DNA from: Candidatus Jorgensenbacteria bacterium CG03_land_8_20_14_0_80_38_39
GTDB lineage: Bacteria; Patescibacteriota; Minisyncoccia; UBA6257; GWB1-50-10
Assembly (NCBI GenBank): GCA_002781185.1
Contig: PEUU01000020.1
Span: 1 to 58,711, forward strand
Length of the DNA: 58,711 nt
Direction: 5' to 3'
The notes under the pieces are model-generated. The model did no database searches. It was not told where the DNA came from and saw only the letters and a program-made list of their open reading frames with translations. Each line of letters starts with the position of its first letter. Positions within the stretch are counted from its first letter, which is position 1. Below are positions 4,289 through 56,278 of this stretch, piece after piece. A program made the translations under genes and the position numbers.

Positions 4289-4720
4289 TTACTGGAGAAT
4301 TTCTTCAATTTTCTTTTCTAAGGCCTCATTAGTCAAAACTGGCTCAAAAGGTTTTTTGACTTCTTTCTTGGGAAACGGCTGACGGCCCCGGCTTTTTAAT
4401 ACGGCTACACCTCCAGATTGTTGCCCTTCTTTAAAAGGAAGATTTAACAAAATAAAACGAAGAATTGTTTGTTCCCCTTTTAAATCTTTTTGAAACTCAA
4501 TAATTTCAGCCGGGTTGGCTAAAAATTGAATGAAATTAAAAAAAGCCGACTGAATTTTTTTAATAGGATAAGCTAAATTAACCTTGACTATTTCCCCTTC
4601 TTCAGTAATAGAAAAATTCCGCTTTTCCAAAAGATTTTTAACAATTGGACTGTCTTCCTCCAAAAGCAAAAATCCTAATTCGTATTTCCTAACTTCCTTT
4701 TCTGAATTTTCGTTATTCAT
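4289..4720 (-). CDS. rpsF: 30S ribosomal protein bS6
   Basis: 143 aa, positioned upstream of ssb-rpsR. The N-terminal YELGFLL region is bS6-like. Its start overlaps the rpoBC stop by 8 nt. Confidence 0.7.
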   Translation of the reverse strand: MNNENSEKEVRKYELGFLLLEEDSPIVKNLLEKRNFSITEEGEIVKVNLAYPIKKIQSAFFNFIQFLANPAEIIEFQKDLKGEQTILRFILLNLPFKEGQQSGGVAVLKSRGRQPFPKKEVKKPFEPVLTNEALEKKIEEILQ

Positions 4721-7700
4721 CTTCTTCTTTTTCTTCTACTTTATCAGCCTCTTTGCTCGGTGTCAATAAATCCTTGGGAATGCCTCGAAAAGCCGTACCG
4801 ACCGGTATTAATTTGCCGATAATGACGTTTTCCTTTAAGCCGCGTAAATAATCGGTTCGGCCTTCGGTGGCGGCAGTGACTAAAACCCGGGAAGTTTCCT
4901 GGAAAGAAGCGGCGGAAAGAAAACTTTCGGTTGTTAAAGCCACGCGGCTAATCCCCAAAATTTTTTGCTTGGCTTTGGCTAAATTTCCTTTCAGCTGTTT
5001 CATTTCTTTATTAATTTGCAAAAATCTGGATTTCTCCATTAAATCGTTAACCATTATCTCCGTATCGCCAGGGTCAGTAACCAAAACCCGGGAAAGCATT
5101 TGCCGAACAATAACTTCAATATGCTTGTCATTTATTGAAGCGCCAGCCGAAACATAAATTTTTTGAACTTCGTTAATAATATAACGCTCTAAGGCTTCTA
5201 TTCCCTGGTAAATTAAAACATCTCTTAAATTAAGAGGACCTTCATATAAAGGTTGACCTTTATACACCCTCTCTCCTTCTTTAATAAGAAGGTTGACATA
5301 AATTGGAACTGGATATTCCACGATTTCGGATTTTTTGCTTTTAGATTTAACTGCTTCCTGAATTTTAATAATTTTTTCATTGCCTTTTTCTTCTATGACT
5401 TTCACTTTACCATCGCCTTTGGCTAGTAAAGCCGCTCCTTTGGGCGGACGAGCTTCAAAAACTTCTTCCACTCTTGGTAAACCATAAGTAATATCCATAC
5501 CGGCTATTCCGCCAACGTGAAAAGTTCGTAAGGTTAATTGCATCCCCGGTTCGCCAATTGACTGAGCGGCAATAATGCCGATGGCTTCACCAATGTCAAT
5601 CGGCTTGTTGCGGCTCAAATCCAAGCCGTAGCAAGCCGAACAAACTCCAAAAAAGGATTTACAAGTTATTGGTGAACGAATTTTAACTGATTCCAGACCG
5701 GATTCTTGAATTTTTTTAGCTTGTTCCTGAGAAATTATTTCACCGGCTCGGACGATAAGTTTCCGGCCGATTCTAATATCCTCCAAAGCTGTCCGGGAAA
5801 AGAGACGTTCAGCAAAATTATAATTATACTCATCGCTTTCTTTTCGAACGATTTCTATTCCTTTGTTCGTGCCGCAATCTTTTTCTTTAATTATCAAATC
5901 TTGGGCAACATCCACCAAACGCCGGGTTAAATAACCAGCCTGGGCGGTCTTCAAAGCCGTATCCGTTGAACCCTTTCTGGCACCGTGAGTGGCAAAAAAG
6001 TATTCCAAAACACCCAAACCTTCTTTGTAAGACGATTTGATAGGCAATTCAATGATGCGCATATTAGGGTCTTGAACCAGCCCTTTCATTCCCATCATTT
6101 GATTAATCTGAGACCAACTGCCGCGGCTGCCGGAATCAATAATGCTGAAAATAGGATTGTCCGGAAGTAAAATTTTAGAAACCTCCTTGGAAACCTCTTC
6201 GTTAACTTTTGTCCAAAGTAAAACAGCTTTTTCTGTCCGCTCTTCTTGGGTTAAAAGCCCTTCCTCAAGCTGAGAATTAATTTCTTCCATTTCTTTTTCG
6301 GCCCGAGCTAAAATTTCTTTCTTGGCGGGCGGGGTAAGAACATCGCTCATATTCCAAGTAATGGCTGATAAGGTGGAATAAGAAAAACCCAGGTCTTTAA
6401 TTTTATCCAAAAAAACATAGGCAGATTCCGGGCCGCATAATTCAATAATTCTAGAAACCACTCGGGAAAGAGCTTTTTTGTTCATTGTTTCGTTGACGAA
6501 ACTTAACTCAGCCGGCAAAGCCCGGTTAAAAATCAACCGGCCATAAGTCGTTTCTATTAGTGATATTGAATCGCTATTTGAATTCTTTGGATTGGGAACT
6601 TTTATCTTGGTTTGAATGTCAATAAAACCGTTTTCATAAGCTAACATTGCTTCTCTTTCATCGGCAAAAATTTTACCTTCGCCTTTAGCCCTTTCTTTAA
6701 TTTTAGTTAAAAAGTAACAACCTAAGGTGATGTCTGTCGTGGGAGAAGTAATGGGTTCGCCGTTAGCCGGTTTTAAAACGCCTAAAGTGGCATCCATTAA
6801 ATGTTTGGCTTCATACTGGGCTTCTTTAGTCAAGGGCAAATGGACCGCCATTTGGTCGCCGTCAAAATCAGCATTAAAAGCCGCGCAGACCATTGGCGGA
6901 ATCCGAATAGCCAGGCCCTCAATTAAAATCGGTTTAAAGGCCTGAATACTTAAGCGGTGAAGAGTGGGAGCGCGATTTAATAAAACTCTTTTATCGGCGA
7001 TAACTTCTTCCAAGATTGCCCAAACTTCCGGCGATTCTTGTTCAATAAAACGATTAGCATTTTTAATGTTGTAAGCCAAACCTCTTTCAATAATCTTACT
7101 AATGACAAATGGCCGGAAAAGTTCCAAAGCTAAAATTTTTGGCAAACCGCACTCGTTAAGCTTTAATTCCGGTCCAATAACGATGACGGAACGGCCGGAA
7201 TAATCTACTCTTTTACCTAAAAGGTTTTGGCGGAAACGGCCTTGTTTGCCTTTTAAGGTATCTGCCAGCGAACGGAGGGGCCGGCGCCGGCTGGAAAGAA
7301 TTTGGCTGCCGGTTCGAGCCGTGTTATCAATTAAAGCGTCAACTGCCTCCTGAAGCATTCTCTTTTCATTGGCAATAATTACTTCTGGCGATTTAAGCTC
7401 AATTAACTTTTTCAAACGGTTATTGCGGTTAATGACCCGACGATATAAATCATTGAGGTCAGCGGTAGCGTAACGGCCGCCGTCCAAAGCCACCATTGGC
7501 CGAAGTTCTGGCGGCAAAACGGGCAAAATAGTTAAAATCGTCCACTCCGGTCTAATCCCGGCTTTAATAAAAGACTTAACCAGTTTAAGTCGGCGGCGTA
7601 AGTGAATTTGTCTATTAATATCTTTAACTTGCAGTATTTCTTTTTCTAAATTTTTAGCCAGAGAATTTAAATCAATTTTTTCTAAAATTTTTCTTAATGC

Positions 7701-14403: not shown

Positions 14404-15234
14404 TTATTTGTAAGATTTCATAGCGTTGATGATTTTTTTAAATTCCCCGGCTTTTAAACTGGCTCCGCCAACCAAAGCGCCGTCAATTTCCGGGTATTTA
14501 AGAAAGGCGGCTAAATTTTCTGAATTAACAGAACCGCCGTACAATAATTTTGAATTTTGAATTTTGAATTTTGAATTAAGAAACGATTTTATAAACTTTG
14601 CCATTTCAGCGGTTTCGGCTGGTGCAGCGGCCCGGCCAGTGCCAATTGCCCAGACTGGCTCGTAAGCCACAATAAGAGAATTTTGAATTTTGAAATCCGA
14701 AATCCGAAGTCTGAAATCTGAAGTCTGAAATCTGAAGAGGTCTTTTTCTAATTGATTTTTTACATAATTCTTTGCCCATTTTATATTCCGCCCTGTTTCA
14801 TTTTTCATCTGCGTCAGTCCGCGTTCAGTCCACGTCAGTCCGCGTTCAGTCCGCGTTTGTCCGCGTTGAGAAGGTTCGCCAATACATAAAATCACTTTTA
14901 AGCCAGCGCAGAGAGCGGCAATGATTTTTTTATTAATCATTTCATCGGTTTCTTTTAAATAAATTCTCCTTTCCGAATGGCCGACAATAACATATTTAAC
15001 TCCCAGATTTTTAAGCATCTGGGAAGAAATTTCTCCGGTGTAAGCGCCGCTTTCGGCCCAAAAAACATCTTGAGCCGCCAGCGAAGCTTTTTTTAAAATT
15101 TTTGAAATCGAAGATAAAAATACAAAAGGCGGGGCAATAATAATATTTTCTTTGTCTATCGCCCGAGCCAAATTAAGCGCTTTTTGCTCCTCAAAGGGAT
15201 TCATCTTCCAATTGGCAATTATGATTTTCTTCAT
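14404..15234 (-). CDS. tpiA: Triosephosphate isomerase carrying repeat-encoded insertions
   Basis: NWKMN, VGHSERR, AYEPVWAIGTG and YGGSV motifs are present. There are 69 residues between CIGE and AYEPVWAIGTG, versus 34 in E. coli TPI from memory. The extra residues (QRGQTRTERGLTWTERGLTQ and FRFQTSDFRLRISDFKIQNS) are encoded by tandem repeats. Confidence 0.9.
   Translation of the reverse strand: MKKIIIANWKMNPFEEQKALNLARAIDKENIIIAPPFVFLSSISKILKKASLAAQDVFWAESGAYTGEISSQMLKNLGVKYVIVGHSERRIYLKETDEMINKKIIAALCAGLKVILCIGEPSQRGQTRTERGLTWTERGLTQMKNETGRNIKWAKNYVKNQLEKDLFRFQTSDFRLRISDFKIQNSLIVAYEPVWAIGTGRAAAPAETAEMAKFIKSFLNSKFKIQNSKLLYGGSVNSENLAAFLKYPEIDGALVGGASLKAGEFKKIINAMKSYK
14548..14578. repeat. Heptamer tandem array (gaatttt x4) inside tpiA
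   Basis: gaattttgaattttgaattttgaatt encodes NSKFKIQNSK. Confidence 0.85.
14679..14740. repeat. Heptamer tandem array (gaaNtNt x about 9) inside tpiA
   Basis: gaattttgaattttgaaatccgaaatccgaagtctgaaatctgaagtctgaaatctgaag. It gives a 21-nt / 7-aa periodic peptide DFRFQTS-DFRLRIS-DFKIQNS. It resembles the arms of 16S insertion 6. Confidence 0.85.
14809..14867. repeat. GCGT-rich 10-11 bp tandem units (cagtccgcgtt) inside tpiA
   Basis: Bases 14828-14865 are 34/38 identical to 30281-30318 in 16S insertion 3, by hand alignment. Confidence 0.85.
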
Positions 15235-26350: not shown

Positions 26351-26406
26351 TTTTTAATTATAACAAACCCCGGCCTTGATGTCCCTGGAAAATAAAATCA
26401 TTGTAC

Positions 26407-26529
26407 CGATCCAAAACTACGAATCTTACGAATCTATCAGCGATTCAAAACTACGAATCCATCCGAATCTACAAATATATGAATAAATAATTTCTTTAAG
26501 AATAAAAGCGATCCAAAACTACAAATCGG
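26407..26529. repeat. Copies of the tacgaat/tacaaat repeat family
   Basis: cgatccaaaactacgaatcttacgaatctatcag (26407-26440), cgattcaaaactacgaatccatccgaatctacaaat (26441-76) and cgatccaaaactacaaatcgg (26509-29). The same about 36-nt unit occurs in 16S insertion 4 and inside rpe. Confidence 0.85.
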
Positions 26530-26535
26530 TTCAGG

Positions 26536-27999: not shown

Positions 28000-28019
28000 A
28001 AAATAATTATACCAAATTA

Positions 28020-28100
28020 TCAACGAATTACAAATCGGTTCCGAATATACGAATTATAAATTCTTATTCGTAAATTCGTAAAAAATTCATAATTCGTTGA
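28020..28100. repeat. Hairpin built from tacgaat-family units
   Basis: tcaacgaatta…taattcgttga arms enclose cgaat/caaat repeats. It lies between the response-regulator gene and the 16S 3' end. Confidence 0.7.
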
Positions 28101-28262
28101 TAGAGCAAAGCGAATTAAAAACTTTTTTGTTGTCCCAATAATCGTGCCTCGCTAATGTTCAGCACGATTTCGACAATAAATTTAATTAATCCACGCACAG
28201 CTTCCGCTACGCGTGCCTTGTTACGACTTCACCCATGTCACCGAGCTTACCCTAACCCAGCT

Positions 28263-28396
28263 TTTTGTTCTCAAGAACAAAAAGCGGCGCTGACTTACGT
28301 TGACTAAACGCTGACCCACGCAGAATTTCTTCCGCGTCGGTCTGCGTAATGTCTGCGTTCTTCCGCGAGCTTTTTGCGCTTCAGCGCAAAAAGCTG
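28263..28396 (-). other. 16S insertion 1, tip of helix 44 (about 134 nt, no ORF)
   Basis: It is flanked by cccagc/gctggg. Two terminal mini-hairpins (ctttttgttc-tcaa-gaacaaaaag and ctttttgcgc-ttca-gcgcaaaaag) enclose an imperfect hairpin of acgc/gcgt-rich units. Confidence 0.75.
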
Positions 28397-28764
28397 GGCT
28401 TTAGGTACTCCCGGCTCCCTTGGTGTGACGGGCAGTGAGTACAGGACTCGAGAACGTATTCACCGCGGCGTGCTGATCCGCGATTACTAGCGATTCCGGC
28501 TTCATGAGGGCGAGTTGCAGCCCTCAATTCGAACTGAGACCGAGTTTGATGGGATTAGCTCCGCCTTACGGCTTAGCAACCCATTGTCCCGGCCATTGTA
28601 ACATGAGTGTCGCCCAGGGCATCAAAGGGCCATGCTGATTTGACGTCGTCCTCACCTTCCTCCGTCTATACGACGGCAGTCTCTTCTGACACTTATAACA
28701 GAAGACAAGGGTTGCGCATGTTTCCCCATTGAAGGGAGCGCCTCACGGCACATGCTGACGGCCA

Positions 28765-29699
28765 TATTATTCCATTATTACTAATGGTATGGACTATACC
28801 ATCACCCTCTTCTTTTAAGAAAAAGAAGGGGGGACCGGCGTTTTATTCTTTATTTTACAAAAGAATAAAATCTCTAAGGTCTTTTTGAGATTAAGTCTCT
28901 ACGGGGTATGAATACTGATTTTTGTAATTTTAATGAATACGGAAAAATTAAGGAAAGAAATTTTTTAGTCTCTAATCTAGAAAAATACAAACAAAAAGTT
29001 TTAGCGCTATGATAATTATAGATTTTTATTCTCCGAAAACCTAACGATTGTATAAGTATTCTGTCTTGTTCTGCCTCCTCTTTATTGCTATAAACAATAC
29101 GACAATCGCTATAAAAATCTTTTGCCACAGAACCATCTCCATCAAATCTGCCTGCCATATAAGGCGAGATCAGTTTTCTGACAATAAAATTACTTAGATT
29201 ATTCTCTAATCCCTTAAATTCCCTCAACAAAGGACGACTATTTACATATAAATGATACGCTTTGGTGCGTCTTTTAAATTTATCTGGTCTGTAAATATAA
29301 AGTTTTAATCTTTTCTCGGGGAAAAATCTCAGAAAAAATTCACGAAATTTATCTATTAACAAAGTATTAGTATTACTTATACCAATACTACTTCCCCAAT
29401 AATAACCATCTGCGCACCACAAACCTAATATATAAGCATCGTCTTTTGTCTTAAAATTCCAAAAATCAGTATTCATACTTCCCACGGTATTACCCATCTG
29501 TTCGCTTCGCGAACACGCTGATTTACGCTGATTAATACGCTGATAAACGCTGATAAAAATTCCGCGTAAATCCGCGTCAGCGCCAAAGGCGCTAAAATCC
29601 GCGTTTATCCGTGTGTTTTACGAAGTAAAATGATTAGGGCTTCACCGTTATGAGCCAGTTTTTCATTCTAAATTTCTCTAGAATGGGTCGACATTTCAA
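28765..29699 (-). mobile_element. 16S insertion 2 (E. coli position about 1050), about 935 nt intron-like element with LAGLIDADG ORF
   Basis: The conserved ctgacggccat | … | catgcagcacctgt is split, and the boundary is ambiguous by the 4-nt ccat repeat. The insertion contains several hairpins and an acgctgat/atccgcgt repeat block at 29515-29613. Confidence 0.75.
28874..29497 (-). CDS. LAGLIDADG homing endonuclease (inside the 16S insertion)
   Basis: 207 aa with two LAGLIDADG-like motifs (ILGLWCADGYYWG and YMAGRFDGDGSV). It is on the same strand as the rRNA. Confidence 0.8.
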   Translation of the reverse strand: MGNTVGSMNTDFWNFKTKDDAYILGLWCADGYYWGSSIGISNTNTLLIDKFREFFLRFFPEKRLKLYIYRPDKFKRRTKAYHLYVNSRPLLREFKGLENNLSNFIVRKLISPYMAGRFDGDGSVAKDFYSDCRIVYSNKEEAEQDRILIQSLGFRRIKIYNYHSAKTFCLYFSRLETKKFLSLIFPYSLKLQKSVFIPRRDLISKRP

Positions 29700-29839
29700 C
29701 CATGCAGCACCTGTCCCGGCGTCCTTGAAAGAAAATTTTCCTTTCGGAAAATCGTCACCGGGATTTCAAGCCCTGGTAAGGTTCCTCGCTTACCATCGAA
29801 TTAAACCTCATGTTCCACCGCTTGTGCGAGTCCCCGTCT

Positions 29840-29871
<32 letters not shown>

Positions 29872-29967
29872 TCCCAGGCGGTCCACTTAATGCGTTAGCT
29901 ACGCCACTCCGAGGGTCGATACTCGAAACAGCTAGTGGACATCGTTTAGGGCGTGGACTACAAGGGT

Positions 29968-30337
29968 CAAGTTGTTACTTCGTAACAATCGCAGACTTAC
30001 GCTGACTTCACGCTGACTTACGCAGAAGTAAACGTAGACACGAGTTACGCGACACAGACATTTCTGCTGTGTTCTGTATATCGCTATACAGGTCGGACTA
30101 TATCTTCACCCGTTTAAATTTTACTTGTGTAAAATTTTGACGGGGTTTGGCGTGTAGTCTCTACGGAGTCCTGTTAGTCATAACAGGTTCCCTCGGTGTT
30201 TTCCATAAAATGGATTTTCACCGATATAGCCAAATTACACTTTAATATTGCTACTAAATGAGACACCATTGTTGCTTCGTGTCCGCGTCAGTCCGCGTTA
30301 AGTCCGCGTCTGTCTGCGGTTTCGCGAAGCGAAACGT
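29968..30337 (-). other. 16S insertion 3, within the 785-806 block (about 370 nt, no ORF)
   Basis: It splits ggactacaagggt | atctaatcc. The ends carry inverted GCGT-rich repeat arms (29989-30035 versus 30279-30320) and terminal mini-hairpins (gttgttac-ttc-gtaacaa and gtttcgc-gaa-gcgaaac). Confidence 0.75.
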
Positions 30338-30653
30338 ATCTAATCCTTTTTGCTCCCCACGCTTTCGCGCCTCAGGGTCAGGAACGTCCCAGCAGAATGC
30401 CTTCGCCTTTGGTGTTCCAGCCGATATCAACGGATTTCACCCCTACACCGGCTGTTCCATCTGCCTCTAACGCCCTCAATCCCGCTCATCTCTTCAGCGG
30501 CCTTAGGGTTAAGCCCTAAGATTTAACTGAAGATGCAGCGGGACCCCTACGCGCCCTTTACGCCCAATAAATCCGGATAACGCTTGGGGCCTTCGTATTA
30601 CCGCGGCTGCTGGCACGAAGTTTGCCACCCCTTATTCTATTCCTACTATCAAT

Positions 30654-30789
30654 CGTGTCTCGCTATCGCTCATCACCTTACGATTCCAAACTACGAATGC
30701 ATCCGAATCTACGAAAATAAATTTCAAATTTGTAGATTCGCATCAATTTGTAGTTTTGGATCGGTAGTGTCGAACAATAGTGAGACACG
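30654..30789 (-). other. 16S insertion 4, V3 region (about 136-nt hairpin)
   Basis: The outer stem is cgtgtctc…gagacacg. The inner arms are gattccaaactacgaatgcatccgaatctacgaa (30682-30715) and its imperfect complement (30729-30763). Confidence 0.7.
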
Positions 30790-31044
30790 ACTTTATCGGA
30801 ATAAAAAGCAGTTTACAACCCTAGGGCCTTCATCCTGCACGCGGCGTCGCTCGATCAGGCTTTCGCCCATTGTCGAATATTCTCGACTGCTGCCTCCCGT
30901 AGGAGTACGTTCCGTGTCTCAGTAACGTCGTTGGGGAATAGCCTCTCAGCTCCCCTACCCGTCGTCGCCTTGGTGGGCCATTACCTCACCAACAAGCTGA
31001 TAGGACCTAGGCCGCTCCCGAAGCGACTTGCGTCTTTACTGGTA

Positions 31045-31205
31045 ATTGGATTTTATTCGCAAGTCGCTTCAGAATTTCTAATTTCTAATTTTTAATTTCT
31101 AATAAATGATTTAATGACTTAATGTTTAAAAATTAAATCACTAAAAATTGATTGAAAATTTAAAATTGAAAATTGAAAATTGAAGAACTTGTAAACAAAA
31201 TCCAA
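31045..31205 (-). other. 16S insertion 5, helix 10 / V2 region (about 160 nt)
   Basis: The stem is ctggtaattggatttt / aaaatccaactaccag. The arms are heptamer arrays aatttct x4 and attgaaa x5. Confidence 0.65.
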
Positions 31206-31295
31206 CTACCAGACTATAGGATATTACCCAATCTTTCGACTGGCTATTTCCTACTTTGGGGTATGTACCAAGGTGTTACTAACTCGTTCGCCACT

Positions 31296-31730
31296 GTCAG
31301 ACATCAGACATTAGAAATCGGATTTCGGATTTTTTGAATTAATGAATTAATTTGTTTTGATTCCACTTTATATTCTTCGATTAATGCATCGCAATTTCCA
31401 CAATTTACATTGGAAAAGTTTAAAATTCTTATCTGCCACAAATGCGTAATTGTTTCATCTGAGGAACCAAGCGCCATATAAAGAAAACGTTTGAATTCGT
31501 TTTGCGAGTTCTTTTTTGCGAATCCCTCAGTAATCTGAGCGGAAATCGCTTTGGCTGAATTACAAACTTGAGATTTTAATTCAAATTCGTTTCGTGGCAA
31601 TTGATTTACCAGTTCATAAATTCTCGGCAATAAATCCATTGCCCTTTTATAAATTTGTAATTCCGTTACGTCTTTCATTAAATCCAATTATATCACCCGA
31701 AATCTGAACTCTGAAGTCTGATATCTGACC
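31296..31730 (-). mobile_element. 16S insertion 6, helix 6 / V1 (about 435 nt) carrying a four-helix-bundle ORF
   Basis: It splits cgttcgccact | cgttcgacttgcatg. Inverted arms gtcagacatcagacattagaaatcggatttcgg (31296-) and ccgaaatctgaactctgaagtctgatatctgac (-31730) can form a long stem around the ORF. Confidence 0.8.
31304..31687 (-). CDS. Four-helix-bundle protein of the 23S rRNA intervening-sequence protein family
   Basis: 127 aa. IYKRAMDLLPRIYELVNQLPRNEFELKSQVCNSAKAISAQITEGFAK…GSSDETITHL resembles the S23p / IVS four-helix-bundle family. It is paralogous to 43238-43621. Confidence 0.75.
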   Translation of the reverse strand: MDLMKDVTELQIYKRAMDLLPRIYELVNQLPRNEFELKSQVCNSAKAISAQITEGFAKKNSQNEFKRFLYMALGSSDETITHLWQIRILNFSNVNCGNCDALIEEYKVESKQINSLIQKIRNPISNV

Positions 31731-43049: not shown

Positions 43050-43190
43050 AAAATTTTTGTCCCGATTTTGTATCCCGCATAGCGGGATTTACAAAATCGA
43101 GGATCCACGATTTCTTTAATCCCGATCGTGAAGCGATCGTGGATAGAAATCGGGAGATTAAGTTTTAAATCAGGATTCAACATAGGAATT

Positions 43191-43250
43191 AGTAGTTAGG
43201 AGTTAGTAGTTAGTAGTTAGTAGTTAGTAGTTAGAAATTAGGAGTTAGTT
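43191..43250. repeat. Heptamer array agtagtt/aggagtt x8; left arm of the four-helix-bundle cassette
   Basis: agtagttaggagttagtagttagtagttagtagttagtagttagaaattaggagtt is the inverse of the taggagttagt units at 43630-43673. Confidence 0.85.
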
Positions 43251-43621
43251 TGTGAAGCGGATCTCAGTACTTGCGACAATTTATTTAACATTCGCATAAT
43301 CTCATTAAGTAATGAAATGATAGAATCGTACTCACTTATTGATATATAGCTCAATTCCTTTGATAACTCTAATTGAGTTTCTAATTCTGCACCAGAGGCA
43401 AAAGCGATATTAATAAATTGAGAATATTCTTTTGCGTGTCTCCGTAAATATCCTTCGGCAACATTGGAAGGAATCCCCACCGCCGCTCGTCTCATCTGAC
43501 TTACCAAACCATATGTCTCTGATTTGGGAAAATTTTTCGTTAACTTATAAACTTCTAAAACTAATTTCATAGATTTTTTCCAAACAATTAATTCTCTAAA
43601 TGATTTTGTTTTTGAATTCAT
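43238..43621 (-). CDS. Four-helix-bundle protein of the 23S rRNA intervening-sequence protein family
   Basis: 127 aa. FRELIVWKKSMKLVLEVYKLTKNFPKSETYGLVSQMRRAAVGIPSNVAEGY…GAELETQLELS is a classic pattern of this family. Confidence 0.85.
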   Translation of the reverse strand: MNSKTKSFRELIVWKKSMKLVLEVYKLTKNFPKSETYGLVSQMRRAAVGIPSNVAEGYLRRHAKEYSQFINIAFASGAELETQLELSKELSYISISEYDSIISLLNEIMRMLNKLSQVLRSASQTNS

Positions 43622-43629
43622 ATTTCTCG

Positions 43630-43673
43630 CTCCTAAATACTAACTCCTAGATACTAACTCCTAAACACTAAAT
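43630..43673. repeat. 14-bp units aactcctaNatact x3; right arm of the four-helix-bundle cassette
   Basis: ctcctaaatactaactcctagatactaactcctaaacacta. Confidence 0.85.
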
Positions 43674-43675
43674 CA

Positions 43676-45956: not shown

Positions 45957-46682
45957 TCACACCTTGCCCAATTTCTCTAAAGTGGTTTTGGGATTACTGC
46001 TCCCCCAAATGTAGGAAGCAGAAACCAAGATGTCTGCCCCGGCTCTTTTTGCTAATCTGGCGGTTTCCAAATTAATTCCGCCGTCAACTTCTATGACAAG
46101 GCTGGGAAATTTTTTTCTTAAGAATTGAATTTTGCTTAAAACTTTTGGTTGAAATTTTTGGCTGGCCCAGCCCGGTTCAACTGCCAAAATTTGAATAAAT
46201 TTAAAATCCTTTAAATAAGGGATTATTTTTTCAACCGGCGTCTCCGGATTAATCGCCAAACCCAATTCAACATCATTTGCTTTACATTTTTTAAAAATTA
46301 AACTGAAAACTTTCCGACTCATTCGTAGATTCGGATAAATTTGTAGTTTGGAATCAGTTATGGCTTCCAAATGAACAATAATTCTCTTCGCTCCGGCTTT
46401 CACCCAATCCTCAATTACCGCCTCAGGATTTTCAACCATCAAATGGCTTTCCAAATTAAACTTCCAACCGGCATTTTTAAGAAATTTTTTTAAATTTTGA
46501 AGGTCTTTTAAATCATTGCCCCAAGTTTTTGCCGCGGTAAATTTGCCGTCGCTAATATCAAACTGAACCCAAGGACTCCCCAGTTTTTTAACCTGTCTTA
46601 ATTTTTTAGTGACGCAAGGCCAATTTAAACAATTAATGGCCGGAATTACTGCCGGTCCTCTTTTTTCAGAAACCGCTTTCAT
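45957..46682 (-). CDS. rpe: Ribulose-phosphate 3-epimerase with repeat-encoded insertion
   Basis: 241 aa with Rpe-like motifs (HLMVENP, GLAINPETP, EVDGGIN). DSKLQIYPNLRM is encoded by a copy of the tacgaat repeat at 46320-46355. Confidence 0.85.
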   Translation of the reverse strand: MKAVSEKRGPAVIPAINCLNWPCVTKKLRQVKKLGSPWVQFDISDGKFTAAKTWGNDLKDLQNLKKFLKNAGWKFNLESHLMVENPEAVIEDWVKAGAKRIIVHLEAITDSKLQIYPNLRMSRKVFSLIFKKCKANDVELGLAINPETPVEKIIPYLKDFKFIQILAVEPGWASQKFQPKVLSKIQFLRKKFPSLVIEVDGGINLETARLAKRAGADILVSASYIWGSSNPKTTLEKLGKV

Positions 46683-47306: not shown

Positions 47307-47825
47307 CTAAAAATTAAAACGTAAAAGAAGGGTCGGCTGTGAGTAAAATACCGCTCGGCCGACGCGCCACCGGCAGCCCGTGGCAAAATCCCACGCAAAC
47401 AGGTCCCACTCTCGAGGGTTGAAATTCCAGTCCACGTTCACCGTAACCACACGACCATCTTTTAATACAAGATAAAAAATGTTTGCGTAGCCGCTGTTTA
47501 ACAGTAAACCGTCCTCGCCCTTGGGTTGCTGCCAGACGAATAATCTACTGATCATCCCGACAAATTCTGGAGGGGTAAATGTTCCCTCACCGATTTTCGG
47601 GCAGAGCTCAGAATCATAGGCACATTCTATAAGCATTGATTTACAGAAAAAACCACGGAACTCGGGTACGATTTCAGGAACCTCCGGGAGAACCCATTCC
47701 CGGAAATTGTCGTTCATCCGGATATTCACAGGACCGTTCTTGCCGAAAAATTCGCTCTTCAAGAACAACGAGCCAGTACTGATAATGGAAATTCCCTGGA
47801 TAATTTCCTTAAATCGTTTTGCCAT
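47307..47825 (-). CDS. Hypothetical protein
   Basis: The ATG at 47825 (MAKRFKE) is preferred. The Trp-rich C-terminal part has higher GC than its neighbours. Family unknown. Confidence 0.45.
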   Translation of the reverse strand: MAKRFKEIIQGISIISTGSLFLKSEFFGKNGPVNIRMNDNFREWVLPEVPEIVPEFRGFFCKSMLIECAYDSELCPKIGEGTFTPPEFVGMISRLFVWQQPKGEDGLLLNSGYANIFYLVLKDGRVVTVNVDWNFNPREWDLFAWDFATGCRWRVGRAVFYSQPTLLLRFNF

Positions 47826-47936
47826 AGCGTTTTCCTTATATTTTTGGCTTACCTTTATCAAGCGACGATTATTTGCTCAACTTAGGGCCTGCCAATTAGT
47901 TTCAAAGTGCACCTCCATTATAACAAACTTTGCTCT

Positions 47937-48983
47937 TCATTTGTCAAGGACTAAATTTGCCACATCTTGCACGTGTTTCACCAGTGTCGCTGCGTAACCC
48001 CATTCGTTATCATACCAAGAAAGAATTTTTACCAAATCCTTGTCAATGACTTTAATGAAATTCAAATCAATGATTGCTCCGTAGGGCTCGCCAATAATAT
48101 CCGAGGAAACCAATTGTTCTTCAGTAACTTTTAAAATCCCCTGCCAGCGCGGTTCTTGACTGGCTTTTTTAAAAATTTCCTTAATTTCTTCTACCGAGGT
48201 TTCTCGCTTGGCCACAAAAGTAATGTCGGCAATGGAGCTAGTGAGCAAAGGCACTCTTAAAGCGAACCCGTCAAATTTTCCTTCCAGTTCTTTAATCACT
48301 CGGGTGACGGCAATCGCCGCGCCAGTGGTGGAAGGCACAATATTTTGAGCGCCGGCCCGGCCGCGCCGCCAATCGCTTCCCTTTGTCGGCCCATCAACTA
48401 AATTTTGAGTGGCAGTATAAGCGTGAACAGTATTTAAAATGGCTTTTTTAATTCCCGGATTTTCTGCCATAATAGCCATTACCGGCGAGACAGCATTAGT
48501 GGTGCAAGAAGCGTTAGAGGTTAAAACCACGGAATTTAACTCGCCTTCATTTATTCCTATTAAAATAGTCTTGCCTTCAGGACCATCGGCATCTTTGGCC
48601 GGGGCAGTGATAATTACTCTTTTGGCGCCGGCTTGAAGATGAACTTTGGCTTTTTCATAAGATTCAAAAATTCCCGTGGCTTCAATCACAACATCAATTT
48701 TTAAATCTTTCCAGGGCAATTTAGCCGGTTCTTTTTCCTGAAGAACTAAAATTTTTTTATCATCAACCATCAAATAATTCTGCGTAAATCCGCCTTCAGT
48801 CTGCGTCAATCCGCGAATTTCCGCAGGAAATTGTCGGTACACGGAATCGTATTTCAAAAGATAAGCGAGATTATCAACACTGCCCAAATCATTGATGGCG
48901 ACAATTTCAAAATCCGGCTGATTAAAAGCTTGCCTAAAAAACAACCTTCCTATTTTTCCAAACCCATTTATAGCAATACGCAT
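47937..48983 (-). CDS. gap: Glyceraldehyde-3-phosphate dehydrogenase
   Basis: 348 aa with INGFGKIGR, the active site SNASCTTN and WYDNEWGY. An extra RGLTQTEGGFTQ segment is encoded by GCGT-type repeats at 48780-48827. Confidence 0.9.
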   Translation of the reverse strand: MRIAINGFGKIGRLFFRQAFNQPDFEIVAINDLGSVDNLAYLLKYDSVYRQFPAEIRGLTQTEGGFTQNYLMVDDKKILVLQEKEPAKLPWKDLKIDVVIEATGIFESYEKAKVHLQAGAKRVIITAPAKDADGPEGKTILIGINEGELNSVVLTSNASCTTNAVSPVMAIMAENPGIKKAILNTVHAYTATQNLVDGPTKGSDWRRGRAGAQNIVPSTTGAAIAVTRVIKELEGKFDGFALRVPLLTSSIADITFVAKRETSVEEIKEIFKKASQEPRWQGILKVTEEQLVSSDIIGEPYGAIIDLNFIKVIDKDLVKILSWYDNEWGYAATLVKHVQDVANLVLDK

Positions 48984-49213: not shown

Positions 49214-49353
49214 TCTTTCATCTTCTTTTATCTGCGGATATACAGTTTTGTCTGCGGATAGACAAATAACTTTAGTCAACAAATCTTTCATCTTCTTTTA
49301 TCTGCGGATATACAGTTTTGTCTGCGGATAGACAAATAACTTTAGTCAACAAA
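49214..49353. repeat. Perfect 70-bp tandem duplication
   Basis: The unit is tctttcatcttcttttatctgcggatatacagttttgtctgcggatagacaaataactttagtcaacaaa. Each copy ends with the left part of the C-type palindrome. Confidence 0.9.
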
Positions 49354-49380
49354 CTCACGATCGTGAGTTTGTTGACTAAA
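49341..49380. repeat. Perfect 40-bp palindrome (C-type), downstream of the giant gene
   Basis: tttagtcaacaaactcacgatcgtgagtttgttgactaaa is identical to 55468-55507. Confidence 0.95.
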
Positions 49381-52400: not shown

Positions 52401-54785
52401 GCCGGTATCATTGCCTTTGGGATCATACATAATTTCCGTAATTTTTATTTCTGCCACAGCTTGCTGTTGATTGTTGGTTGTTTGTTGTTGGTTATTAGTT
52501 GACGTCCCGCCGCCTCCACCACCGCTTGTAGAAATTGGCGCTAATTGTGTATTTTCCTGCCGAGGCGTCCCGCCGCTCGTAGCCGAAGTGTGCCAACCAC
52601 AAGGCGCGGACAAATGCGGACTAGACGCGGACTCATACGGACAAATATCCCGTTCCATTGTTTTTCTTTCGGTCGCCGAAGTATTATCGCCGGCCGGCCA
52701 GTTAGGATTAGCCAAAACTTCGTCAATCAAATTACATTGCTCATCAAAAAGCCTTAATCCTTCATCAGAATTGGACAAAACGCCTGTATAAACAAAGTCG
52801 GCCGTGATTGTCGGCAGAGTATTGTCCTTAGTCCTTTCCAAAAGATAAAAACCGCCAGCAAGAATTTTTTTGTTAATGATTTTGCGATTGTCTGGCTGAC
52901 CAAAAACTACTTTAATCTGCTCTCCTTTGTCAATTAATTGCCAGCCGTTTAAATCAACTTCGCTGTTAGAAATATTTTTCAATTCAATCCATTCATCGCT
53001 GGCGTTGTTTGAAGTCCCCATCCAAGCAACTTCATTAATAATAACTTTTTGATGAGAGGGCGATTGACCAGTGGCAAAACTGCAAGGTTTAAAAGTTGGA
53101 GATGAAATTTTAGATTGATCTTGCAGTGAAGTATCAGAAACTTTTGACAGGGATGAGGTCGATGAAGTCGCTGATATCGATGATGTCGCTGCCAGCAATG
53201 GCGAAGTTTCTTCAACAACTTTTTTCTCCAATTCCTTTGAACCCAAAACTTGATATTTGAGTTTGGCGGAAATTTTGCCGCTGGCTAAATCAGCCGCCGA
53301 GTAAAAATATGTTCCCAAAGCTGCATCTAACGGCACTAAGTAAACATAGTCATAATTGCCTTTGGTATCGCTTAAAATTGAAATCTCAATTTTTTTATTC
53401 GGCGCCGGCGGCTCAAGAGATATCAAAACCCGACTATTGGGCGTAAATCCCTGACCGCGCTGATGAATTACTTCTCCTTTTTTTACTTCAGTTTTGTCAA
53501 GAGAAATTTTGGGGTCAATGATAGGGAGGACAATGGTTGTTTGTTTTTCTTCTCTGGTTGAAGTTCCAAAATTTTTATTTTCTGGCTGTTGGGAATTGAC
53601 CAAATCCGGCGTGTTGAGGGGGATTTCTTTAACCAAATTCCGCGGTCCTTGATTACTAAAAACACTGGAGAAGGTTTCACTAATGGTAGAAGCAACATTA
53701 CCGACAACATTACTGACAGCGCTCATCACCTGTCCAAAAAAGGACTTCTTTTCTTGAATATTTTCTTGAATAATTTCCGGGCTATTTTTTGCTTTTTCAA
53801 CTTCTTGGAAGAAAAGATTAATCACACCAGCGCCATATTGAACGGATTTAGTGGAAAGACGAGACCAGTAATTTTCTAAAACTATATCTGATTCTAATGT
53901 CGCATCGAATTTTATTGAGAATAAGATATTTGGAATTGATTTTCTAAATAAATAATAGTCCCCAAATTCACTATCAATTTTTGTAGGATACAAATATTTA
54001 TCTATTCTTACCTCATAATCTGGTTGTGGTAATTCGTATCCGCTTTGTGTTCCAATTGTATCCTTGCTGTAAAAATTATTATTTGAATATTTCGCTAATT
54101 CATCAAAATAAGAATTTAGATTAGAAAAAATTATTGGGGATTTATTTTGCAATCTTTGGTCTAAATTATTATCAGAATTAGAAAGAGTATATTTTTGAGT
54201 ATAGTTTTCATAAGGACTATTTCCAGGATGAGGGTCATTTCTTGTATGGTCTGGCACCGAAGTATCTTCAATTAAATGCAAAATATGGCCGAGGGTAAAC
54301 ATTGCTTTTTCTTTTTCACCTTGAACATAAAATCTAATCGCTCTTTGCCAGGTAAAATCGGTTTCAGTTGAAAGCACAGTGATTTTTAACTGTTGGACAG
54401 CTGTTAAAATTGAAGCAATGGTTGCCGGCACTTTATAAGTCAAATTGTTTTGATTACTGCTATCCTGCGCCCAATTTTTTGATTTTTGCCAGGTACCTAC
54501 ATTAACCAAGGGGTCAATGGCTGGATCATAAGTAAGCCCGCGATTATACACCGGGTCATAAAAATGGTTCATCCAGCGCGGAATATCATCCTCGTGCCGC
54601 GAACCATCTAATAAATAAGAAACCAAGTCATCAGAAATTTTATTATTCGGAAAATTTTGATTATAAAGCTTAACAACTTCTTCTGTTAAAAAGGCGTGTG
54701 TTTCCACGTCATAAGCAAAAGCGTTATGAGCATAAAAAATTAAAAGACCGGAAATGATAATTAATAATTTAAATTTAAACTTCAT
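49461..54785 (-). CDS. Giant secreted multidomain protein (Zn-dependent phospholipase C / nuclease P1-like N-domain, 3 lamin-tail domains, PKD, FN3-like)
   Basis: 1774 aa with a signal peptide. His/Asp-rich N-domain motifs are HEDDIPRWMNHFYDP and HLIEDTSVPDHTRNDPH. LTD-like segments are INEVAWMG…DEWIELKN (aa 578-), ITEIMYDP…REWIEIFN (aa 778-) and ISEIQIRG…DEFIELYN (aa 1020-). A PKD-like segment is WDFGDGATS (aa 925-1012). Poly-Gly and Asn/Gln linkers are present. Confidence 0.75.
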   Translation of the reverse strand: MKFKFKLLIIISGLLIFYAHNAFAYDVETHAFLTEEVVKLYNQNFPNNKISDDLVSYLLDGSRHEDDIPRWMNHFYDPVYNRGLTYDPAIDPLVNVGTWQKSKNWAQDSSNQNNLTYKVPATIASILTAVQQLKITVLSTETDFTWQRAIRFYVQGEKEKAMFTLGHILHLIEDTSVPDHTRNDPHPGNSPYENYTQKYTLSNSDNNLDQRLQNKSPIIFSNLNSYFDELAKYSNNNFYSKDTIGTQSGYELPQPDYEVRIDKYLYPTKIDSEFGDYYLFRKSIPNILFSIKFDATLESDIVLENYWSRLSTKSVQYGAGVINLFFQEVEKAKNSPEIIQENIQEKKSFFGQVMSAVSNVVGNVASTISETFSSVFSNQGPRNLVKEIPLNTPDLVNSQQPENKNFGTSTREEKQTTIVLPIIDPKISLDKTEVKKGEVIHQRGQGFTPNSRVLISLEPPAPNKKIEISILSDTKGNYDYVYLVPLDAALGTYFYSAADLASGKISAKLKYQVLGSKELEKKVVEETSPLLAATSSISATSSTSSLSKVSDTSLQDQSKISSPTFKPCSFATGQSPSHQKVIINEVAWMGTSNNASDEWIELKNISNSEVDLNGWQLIDKGEQIKVVFGQPDNRKIINKKILAGGFYLLERTKDNTLPTITADFVYTGVLSNSDEGLRLFDEQCNLIDEVLANPNWPAGDNTSATERKTMERDICPYESASSPHLSAPCGWHTSATSGGTPRQENTQLAPISTSGGGGGGTSTNNQQQTTNNQQQAVAEIKITEIMYDPKGNDTGREWIEIFNAGTSTVNLDGWKFSEGGSNHLLLVYRGSLTISPSEYAIIVDNPEKFLTDWSNYSGTIIDSSFSLNNTGETIAIKNGDLIVDQVNYQSSWGANDNGKSLQLINNEWKEIQPTPGQQNQISSTNQAPSAFFVYAPQNPQVDEEIIFDAASSTDDGQIVFYQWDFGDGATSTISTATTTHFYSQAGSYPVSLIIFDEQNASSTATSTTISVNSAQPAGVNHIVISEIQIRGDTANDEFIELYNPTNRNIPLDNFSIQYLSGTATSTDKIIKKNFSNGHQIAAKSFFLLINSNATSSLKDKSDMTYSGFSLSGNSSGATIFLVGTTTPIFDISESEIIDSFSYGAPLLSVSTATSTVPEANKSLERKAWQSNQCVSSQLDNEFLGNGCDTDSAADFEIRNTPHPQNSANLAEPREKPSINNLQAAYSPNPKIDFSWNVSIDAEGATSTNIYSFYDITDGNSTLLYKSSSSLAYSYGINEIGKNYEFQFEVQDRDGFANYSTTTIFAQSFFDGVYFYRDPRPGSDNYFVDLVTSSSRPLWDKNDTTNNQNWKLVMFYLNHDAPKQQTFDTAHWLTPEDPNFLSLKYNACHGYGPSSSPSLLIPWNNYSCQPGGPLSSAYSFGDLEDKRFNIKTASSVSDVAFSPADYLTLAFYDFGGGGGGNQYFNLAAVDKTKYYFQNEPPIHQPPSSPGPVTAVFNNNNDDPQVIVNWSGSNDPDTLDRLISYETNYALLNEPLASSSWQSLTRGIASQQISGLTLTEGQTYEIAVRAKDDFNLYSEIATTTFQMPILPLTLIDYSQGGDRPDGSNDWPLGYRECSRAAEKIKFNQTVKLDSYKIWLEQSGQNGYNARVSLVKASSTDENQPSADPADIISTDLVPHERIMPSWTFDLFNFNKSNNNIILSANQTYYLVVEGDNCQPGNSDVSSYEYHLSVKTFHNSPNSGNLYISDIFETKGSWTRFWDWRDISLILKGTIIP

Positions 54786-55467: not shown

Positions 55468-55507
55468 TTTAGTCAACAAACTCACGATCGTGAGTTTGTT
55501 GACTAAA
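55468..55507. repeat. Perfect 40-bp palindrome (C-type), downstream of paralog C
   Basis: tttagtcaacaaactcacgatcgtgagtttgttgactaaa. Confidence 0.95.
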
Positions 55508-56236: not shown

Positions 56237-56278
56237 TTTTAGTCAACAAACTCACGATCGTGAGTTTGTTGAGTAAAA
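56237..56278. promoter_or_regulatory. 42-bp palindrome (one mismatched pair), C-type, upstream of paralog C; candidate operator
   Basis: ttttagtcaacaaactcacgatcgtgagtttgttgagtaaaa. Confidence 0.6.

Follow-up and report, generated by a model that had tools for sequence, protein, structure and literature searches.

The 58,711-nucleotide contig PEUU01000020.1 of Candidatus Jorgensenbacteria bacterium CG03_land_8_20_14_0_80_38_39, analysed here as a whole and called the window below, carries rpe, the gene for ribulose-phosphate 3-epimerase, on its minus strand (45957..46682). The gene lies in a pentose-phosphate/glycolysis cluster together with rpiB, gapA and split transketolase genes. Its 241-aa product matches Pfam PF00834 (Ribul_P_3_epim) with an E-value of 1.9e-37 and has 792 homologs at E<=1e-10, of which the named ones all come from the Candidate Phyla Radiation (CPR, or Patescibacteria). 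Inside rpe, at 46311..46355 on the minus strand, lies one arm of a dispersed repeat. The arm comprises ~2.5 sub-repeats of 18 nt and encodes residues D110-K124, DSKLQIYPNLRMSRK. Its 36-nt core (46320-46355) reads GATTCCAAACTACAAATTTATCCGAATCTACGAATG as the reverse complement (mRNA sense, 46355..46320), is in frame in the rpe open reading frame (ORF) and has the translation DSKLQIYPNLRM.

A sequence-only reading of the window had claimed that this core is a unit of an insertion in the 16S rRNA gene and that an intergenic copy is similarly close. We performed an ungapped scan of both window strands with the rpe 36-mer. The scan revealed 31/36 identities to one arm of the 16S V3-region insertion (30682-30717, plus strand), 30/36 to the other arm of the same hairpin (30727-30762, minus strand) and 30/36 to the intergenic copy (26442-26477, plus strand), compared to best matches of only 21-24/36 in 20 dinucleotide-preserving shuffles. 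Both claims were thereby confirmed, with the intergenic copy shifted by one base. The similarity also held against an independent profile, built from 68 copies from other genomes with the window sequence excluded, with which nhmmer detected the rpe copy at 46355..46314 (E 6.6e-12, 41.7 bits). Since this match reaches 46314, the similarity extends ~6-9 nt past the end of the core, to ~46311-46314. The tail of the rpe copy, GAGTCGGAAA, is similar to the third sub-repeat of other copies, (A/G)AATCCGAAA, and the extension to 46311 was judged by eye. The copy matches itself at 18/30 positions at a lag of 18 nt, and the peptide in the rpe frame is itself periodic, (D/H)P(K/N)LR(I/M). A search of the flanks of the rpe unit for a remnant of a second arm found none. 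The downstream motif AAGTTTTYA belongs to the normal conserved sequence of rpe and is also found in P0002, the closest ortholog.

The 16S rRNA gene (28181..31331, minus strand; Rfam SSU and Intron_gpI) is 3151 nt long and is interrupted by several insertions, among them a group I intron and a LAGLIDADG ORF (28874..29497; LAGLIDADG_3 match). Using cmscan, a 127-nt insertion (30656..30782, minus strand) was placed within the hairpin just past bacterial SSU model position 458, which we take to be helix 17 of the V3 region. Its inner arms, 30682-30717 and 30727-30762, are inverted copies of the unit (profile E 4.9e-12 and 6.6e-12), and the full element within it measures 84 nt and runs CGAT...ATCG. 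The 127-nt insertion folds into one long hairpin with a minimum free energy (MFE) of -62.1 kcal/mol (z = -9.9). A different arrangement is found in the intergenic array at 26406..26530 (plus strand), where three copies stand in direct orientation, a partial one at 26406-26436, a full one at 26439-26481 and a partial one at 26507-26526 (profile E 2.3e-4, 8.6e-13 and 2e-3, in that order). This array forms no hairpin on either strand (fold z = +0.7). Just downstream of the 16S 3' end, at 28018..28102, a related ACGAAT-type inverted repeat forms a hairpin (MFE -32.5 kcal/mol, z -6.8) and is a weak relative of the family (profile E 0.12-0.77). In total, the window holds at least 4 full and 3 partial family copies in 58.7 kb. 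The 16S insertion was considered as the specific donor of the rpe copy and rejected because the rpe copy is equally close to copies in other CPR genomes: it matches copies of its own genome at 30-31/36 positions and those of other CPR genomes at a median of 30 and a maximum of 33. Judged by sequence similarity, the rpe, 16S and foreign copies can all be assigned to one pan-CPR family.

To describe this family, we scanned a strict 25-nt pattern, AAACTACRAATNNATSCGAATCTAC, which covers all four window copies, against one genome per GTDB species. The pattern matched 70 times in 65 contig stretches, with up to about 12 matches per metagenome-assembled genome (MAG). By their record titles, the hosts are Jorgensen-, Harrison- and Doudnabacteria, Parcubacteria, several "Saccharibacteria" MAGs, unlabelled "bacterium" MAGs and one "Spirochaetia"; apparently all are CPR/Patescibacteria, which for two oddly labelled MAGs is an assumption. 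The IMG/VR viral contigs gave 0 matches, and hence no phage-borne copies were found there. The consensus of the aligned copies is AAGCGATCCGAAACTACGAATTCATCCGAATCTACAAATAAATACGAAA. The arms are tandem 18-nt sub-repeats (mean self-identity 0.60 at lag 18 compared to 0.16-0.37 at other lags), so that one sub-repeat corresponds to six codons; a 9-nt periodicity was considered and rejected in favour of this period. By inspection, the consensus is stop-free in all three forward frames and one reverse frame, that is in 4/6 frames. A recognisable inverted partner lies downstream in 26/74 copies, at a spacing of a few to ~130 nt and mostly within ~50 nt. A full element is a hairpin of 78-128 nt, has the ends GCGAT...ATCGG and is an imperfect palindrome over its whole length, and copies without an inverted partner are either lone arms or direct arrays without structure such as that at 26406-26530.

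Copies of the family are placed close to gene boundaries. About 24/74 copies start at a distance of -3 to +7 nt from an upstream ORF's stop codon, and ~18/74 begin ~2 nt from the start codon of an ORF on the opposite strand. At loci L003-L067, copies typically stand 1-6 nt past a stop triplet or exactly 2 nt from the CAT of a divergent gene. A copy 2 nt from a divergent start leaves essentially no space for a conventional 5' UTR or Shine-Dalgarno sequence. Two further resemblances were dropped. A likeness to the DnaA box (TTATCCGAA compared to TTATCCACA) is confined to a minority TTTATCC variant, and microhomology of the GCGAT end with the Ala-Ile codons of H-x-E-A-I does not fit the reading register. 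A literature search for an earlier description of such repeats in CPR bacteria, which did not cover Brown et al. 2015, found none, and the family appears to be unreported for CPR.

To locate the insert in the enzyme, we compared the window protein with rice Rpe (PDB 1h1y) and modelled it with AlphaFold2 from an 89-sequence alignment. Directly behind the β4 strand ...HxE, the alignment with the rice enzyme opens a gap-insert of 14 residues in the window protein. The model is an otherwise confident TIM barrel (mean predicted local distance difference test (pLDDT) score 93.8, predicted TM-score (pTM) 0.90), in which the only internal block of low confidence is a coil formed by residues 111-120 (mean pLDDT 62), between β4 (98-104) and helix α4 (123-135). 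The insert is predicted from this model to add a flexible surface loop to the β4-α4 connection. The sequence-only reading had placed the peptide between the H-x-E and GLAINP strands and had described this connection as normally short, which is imprecise: it holds helix α4, retained here at residues 123-135. Mapping onto the structure, as that reading had proposed, thus narrows the site to the β4-α4 loop, the only internal segment with low pLDDT. Elsewhere in the protein, the His of the LHMD motif in 1h1y, which is a metal ligand in characterised Rpe enzymes, aligns with Gln in the window protein (VQFD; residue Q40, codon ~46563-46565). Gln is the consensus at this position in these CPR Rpe orthologs and possibly points to altered metal binding.

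The history of the insert was examined in 120 CPR Rpe orthologs, in which the H-x-E...GLAINP segment spans 23-56 residues. At the site of the insert, P0002, which is the closest ortholog at 83% identity outside the loop, is 11 residues shorter. The next relatives, P0003/P0127 (70% identity), have the element in frame with the same ACTGAT junction as the window, and there it is split by a nested, GC-rich, in-frame insert of 39 nt (13 codons), CTTCCTCGCTGTCGCGGCGCTCAGGGGCGAGCCGGCGGG, which encodes LPRCRGAQGRAGG. This arrangement suggests that a second repeat family may have inserted into the first within rpe of P0003/P0127. In this lineage, the interrupted element lies in the rpe loop of loci L002 and L074 (L074 ~5100-5170). 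The window and P0003 copies are ~67% identical by hand count, close to the mean column identity of 73% in the alignment of the three genes around them, which fits one ancestral insertion followed by vertical descent. We infer that P0002 lost the segment secondarily and for the most part precisely. All of six near-identical protein variants, seen on 36 contigs of several sources (some named Candidatus Jorgensenbacteria by NCBI), have the insert, which is therefore not an assembly artefact. The indels in the rpe loop, of 33, 36 and 39 nt, are all divisible by three, which translation of the segment would predict.

Family DNA also occupies the same β4-α4 loop, in the same frame as in the window, in the more distant orthologs P0102, P0087 and P0060. 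P0102 (L071) has the peptide SDPNLRIHPNVPN and the DNA AGCGATCCTAATCTACGAATTCATCCTAAT (profile E 6e-5), P0087 (L072) has NANLRMYAN and AATGCAAATCTACGAATGTATGCGAAT (E 1.7e-3), and P0060 (L073) has NIRMNANDTNIAN and ACGAAT-type repeats (E 0.1). The nearest relatives, P0054 (77% identity), P0029 (80%) and P0089 (72%), are without the segment. P0093 likewise has CGAAT-type repeat DNA at this loop in the same frame. Peptide and repeat go together in these proteins: P0002 has no such peptide, the orthologs with a similar peptide (P0003/P0127, P0102, P0087 and P0060) carry the repeat DNA itself, and the check that the sequence-only reading had set against itself, for repeat-free orthologs with the same peptide, did not refute it. 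In no Rpe ortholog was an element-derived peptide found elsewhere in the protein. By comparison of nearest relatives rather than by mapping on a tree, several gain or loss events would be needed at this loop, which may be either the only permissive site in Rpe or subject to some targeting. A further, large group of orthologs has a 41-residue segment (…SAKKNPDNNE…), and those tested, P0004, P0010 and P0042, have no DNA similarity to the element (E>1). The idea that the Wolfebacteria-type 41-aa loop (KNPDNNE/DSAKKHSNNNE) is a decayed element copy was therefore set aside as speculation.

The element was also found inside other genes of CPR MAGs. In-frame copies were identified by stop-to-stop ORF analysis combined with Pfam, and in TopA, MnmA, PrfB, YbeY and the DNA-alkylation-repair protein the domain matches flank the insert on both sides or span it. 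TopA (L029) has an in-frame copy between zinc ribbons, and MnmA (L055) has both arms in frame, encoding DSKLRIHSNLR...FVDSDKFVVSHR. Further in-frame copies were found in PrfB (L013), YbeY (L015), a DNA-alkylation-repair protein (L061) and FtsK (L033), in the last case in the linker upstream of the gamma domain. Copies in the C-terminal tails of an RsmI-like (L037) and an FBA-like (L022) protein were assigned by eye from translations. Three frames are in use among the embedded copies: forward frame 1, which is that of rpe, forward frame 3 (SETTNSSESTN) and the reverse frame that is open (FVDSDEFVV). Ribosomal RNA genes are occupied beyond the 16S gene of the window: in L032 (MAG HSP1.bin6), the 23S gene holds a complete element hairpin (6540-6612) with the outer stem cgttcgcttcgctcactgttag..., and a near-duplicate hairpin lies at 4612-4693 in an unusually long 23S-5S spacer. 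In L024, at ~5229-5253, the element joins a PD-(D/E)XK (PF13366) ORF to a prepilin-type ORF in a single stop-free frame. A separate case is P0080 of Wolfebacteria, a fusion of PDDEXK_3 and Rpe with 373 aa. Element sites may thus give rise to fused genes or to mis-calls.

Together, these results make it probable that the rpe segment is one arm of a dispersed, non-coding, palindromic CPR repeat that inserted as selfish DNA, in the manner of a Rickettsia palindromic element (RPE) or a MITE (miniature inverted-repeat transposable element), and that is tolerated and translated. Insertion into rpe would have taken place in an ancestor shared by this Jorgensenbacteria lineage and that of P0003/P0127, and the copy would later have been largely deleted in the P0002 lineage. 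In the window, it would be transcribed and translated as a flexible extra loop of ~12-15 residues on an intact TIM barrel, with an effect on Rpe that is presumably neutral or mildly deleterious. The family would have spread as selfish DNA, mobilised in trans by some putative enzyme or moved by recombination. Selection would have removed insertions that break the frame or the structure, and surviving copies would be in frame because of the six-codon periodicity and the open frames. The places where copies have built up are those of little harm, next to stop and start codons, in rRNA genes and at in-frame sites in coding sequences (CDSs).

Several observations weigh against this interpretation. 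The rpe copy is a single arm that forms no hairpin (fold z = -1.1) and is therefore not a canonical insertion of a full element. Flanks of the copies are A/T-rich, often with TAA on both sides and with variable spacing, and they show no consistent target-site duplication. No transposase was detected by Pfam in 21 window ORFs, in a search that was not exhaustive, and no inverted copy pair flanks an ORF in the 65 loci, as an autonomous parent element would. The junction in P0002 is ambiguous, the difference being 33 nt and the element-like sequence 42-45 nt, and independent gains are a conceivable alternative to loss in P0002. Random insertion alone does not account for the repeated occupation of one Rpe loop in one frame. 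Finally, the family is unusually conserved across labelled candidate phyla (median 30/36 to the rpe copy), more so than expected of decaying junk, which hints at a sequence-level function or recent horizontal spread.

This conservation (median 30/36, maximum 33/36), together with the strongly non-random placement at stop or start codons, the regular 18-nt periodicity suggestive of repeated recognition units and the recurrent occupation of the same Rpe loop, would also fit an element that is a functional signal. It could be a regulatory or protein-binding hairpin at gene ends (a terminator, a stabiliser or a hairpin like the REP (repetitive extragenic palindromic) sequences), or an uptake-type signal under molecular drive, with the CDS and rRNA copies as by-products or as deliberately retained sites. 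We regard this as unlikely. The density of ~4 full units in 58.7 kb is far below that of known DNA uptake sequences (USS/DUS), which occur about once per kb; the 14-mer and 13-mer cores, each with one mismatch allowed, are found at only 4-5 positions in 58.7 kb, almost all of them within the few window elements. Hairpins, lone arms and direct arrays lack a common context, a U-tract after the hairpins is not evident by eye (no systematic scan was made), and intergenic regions in compact genomes are short, so that any intergenic copy adjoins a gene. A stronger form of the idea, to which we likewise give little weight, is that the element is a pan-CPR, sequence-constrained module of 18-nt recognition units with active, possibly targeted insertion or maintenance. 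It would then be a common origin of short ORF-less rRNA insertions and of loop insertions in core enzymes in CPR bacteria, and its recurrence in Rpe would stem from targeting or from positive selection of (D/H)P(K/N)LR(I/M).

Recombination in place of transposition is a slightly less probable origin again. Here, an old extension of the Rpe loop would have been overwritten time and again by gene conversion from copies elsewhere in the genome, or the unit would have been copied in through template switching at CGAAT/CGAT microhomologies. Such a process would explain the same site and frame seen in five Rpe lineages, and there is a large ortholog group with about equal loop length whose DS..K..H(P/S)(D/N)N is reminiscent of DSKL.IHPNL; direct arrays and variable numbers of sub-repeats also suggest slippage or recombination. 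However, the 41-aa-loop orthologs P0004, P0010 and P0042 show no similarity to the element at the DNA level, the window and P0003 copies have diverged to a degree that suits simple vertical inheritance with no homogenisation, and the rpe copy is no closer to copies of its own genome than to foreign ones. Chance or low-complexity resemblance, for which the AT-rich genome full of short periodic repeats could speak, and an assembly artefact are both extremely improbable given 30-31/36 observed matches against a shuffle maximum of 24/36, the independent profile E of 6.6e-12, the identical protein on 36 contigs from several sources and the same element in rpe of other lineages. Insertion of a selfish, tolerated repeat arm is the interpretation we prefer.

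The rpe insert is one instance of a wider repeat invasion in the window. The sequence-only reading had named rpe as the second case, after tpiA, of an rRNA-insertion repeat inside an essential gene, and tpiA indeed holds an in-frame GTCCGCG-type repeat that is common to 16S insertions. The tpiA gene (14404..15234, minus strand; Pfam TIM, two stretches) has three in-frame repeat-derived segments of other families: this GTCCGCG-type repeat at 14807-14865 (QRGQTRTERGLTWTERGLTQ), heptamer tandem repeats at 14676-14735 (FRFQTSDFRLRISDFKIQNS) and an (AATTTTG)n repeat at 14546-14583 that encodes NSKFKIQNSK. In gapA (47937-48983, minus strand), a GTCCGCG-family repeat is in frame at 48778-48815 (RGLTQTEG...), and the syntenic gapA of the relative L074 (77% identity) is without precisely the 8 residues of this insert. 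This family also occurs in a 1774-aa ORF, at 52605-52642. Between rpiB and gapA lies a 184-aa ORF (47307-47861, minus strand) with no Pfam match; Wolfebacteria-type relatives (L068-L070) have a PvlArgDC gene of 183-185 aa at this position, and L074 has no gene between gapA and rpiB.

Other features of the window were noted alongside these. Pfam scanning of genes near the window repeats detected only 23S_rRNA_IVP and LAGLIDADG. One 23S_rRNA_IVP gene (PF05635, E 1e-39; 43238-43621) lies between the split transketolase genes and has heptamer arrays in inverted orientation on its two sides, namely (TAGTTAG)n at 43183-43249 and (CTAACTC)n at 43622-43674. A gene of this type between the transketolase genes is present in L074 and absent in L070 and L073. 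A second one (31304-31687) adjoins the 5' end of the 16S gene. A 40-nt palindrome, TTTAGTCAACAAACTCACGATCGTGAGTTTGTTGACTAAA, is found at 49341-49380, 55468-55507 and 56238-56277, in each case intergenic; two copies are identical and the third differs by one base. It is a separate repeat family and possibly terminator-like.

CPR bacteria have tiny, streamlined genomes, yet their rRNA genes are full of insertions, of which the short ORF-less class is unexplained (PMC11270868). At least one such short insertion is a copy of a dispersed repeat, which gives a concrete origin for insertions of this kind. The observations carry the concept of selfish DNA within protein genes beyond Rickettsia, into a quite different radiation with reduced genomes, and they offer a natural experiment on the tolerance of individual protein loops and rRNA helices for insertions. 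For annotation and phylogenetics, they are a warning that indels specific to one lineage in CPR marker genes can stem from repeats. The high conservation across lineages and the repeated use of one Rpe loop merit follow-up.

Among known systems, the short ORF-less insertions in CPR rRNA genes have been left 'uncharacterized', with the suggestion that they may be intervening sequences (IVSs) cleaved by RNase III (PMC11270868). The 16S V3 copy matches that class as an ORF-less insertion of <200 nt with a long hairpin, and the 127-nt insertion is a hairpin extension within an rRNA helix that replaces its loop. In contrast to that account, which draws no link to genome-wide repeats or protein genes and uses the word 'repeat' 0 times in its text, the unit described here is also intergenic and, by reading frame, located within protein genes. 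The REP sequences, their BIME arrangements and the associated RAYT transposases (PMC3733652) offer another comparison. Like REPs, the CPR elements are extragenic palindromes at gene ends with GTAG tetranucleotides on the complementary strand. Unlike them, they have arms of 36-45 nt (compared to 20-40 nt in total), carry GTAG internally rather than terminally, are AT-rich rather than GC-rich and occur inside CDSs and rRNA genes. No RAYT gene was detected among the window ORFs scanned with Pfam.

The MITEs Correia/NEMIS (107-bp form), ERIC and YPAL have open frames and take part in in-frame ORF fusions (PMC2229807). The CPR element resembles them in being small and mostly intergenic, in its long stem-loop transcript, in its in-frame fusions and stop-free frames, and in its terminal inverted repeats (TIRs), GCGAT...ATCGG. 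It differs in that it is palindromic throughout rather than consisting of TIRs that flank a core, and in that target duplication, of TA or otherwise, is not established. A related insertion sequence (IS) or transposase with the same ends was not found in the scanned window ORFs or the 65 loci, in a search that was not exhaustive.

The closest likeness in behaviour is to the RPEs, described by Ogata et al. 2000/2002 and reviewed in PMC2229807, PMC10969869 and PMC1779305. RPEs are palindromic repeats of 100-150 bp with intergenic copies and, in R. conorii, in-frame copies in 19 conserved protein genes; an RPE-bearing gmk is translated and active, and RPEs are also found in the tmRNA and M1 RNA genes (PMC2229807, PMC10969869). 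Old RPE insertions, such as RPE-7 in PheT, are shared by members of the genus (PMC1779305). The CPR element is likewise a multi-copy family of dispersed, non-coding palindromic repeats in reduced genomes, found both between genes and in frame, with the ORF preserved, in conserved essential genes (rpe, TopA, MnmA, PrfB, YbeY and DNA_alkylation), where it would add a peptide without destroying the fold. In both systems, stable RNA genes are occupied (those for tmRNA and M1 RNA in Rickettsia and those for 16S and 23S rRNA in CPR bacteria), related lineages have old insertions in common and no transposase is known. A long stem-loop is typical of the CPR family, with hairpins of 78-128 nt and a fold z of -9.9 for the 16S copy compared to -1.1 for the rpe copy. 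The CPR element is shorter, at 78-128 nt in full and 42-45 nt in rpe, and its arms are built of 18-nt tandem sub-repeats, with a single arm in rpe. It spans MAGs of several labelled candidate phyla at high identity rather than one genus, and it recurrently occupies the same protein loop in different CPR lineages. RPE-1 to RPE-10 are restricted to Rickettsiales, the hosts here are unrelated CPR bacteria and the likeness was drawn from behaviour, so that the CPR element is a functional analogue of RPEs and not a member of them. Collectively, the kind of phenomenon is one already known from Rickettsia, and the CPR family itself appears to be new.

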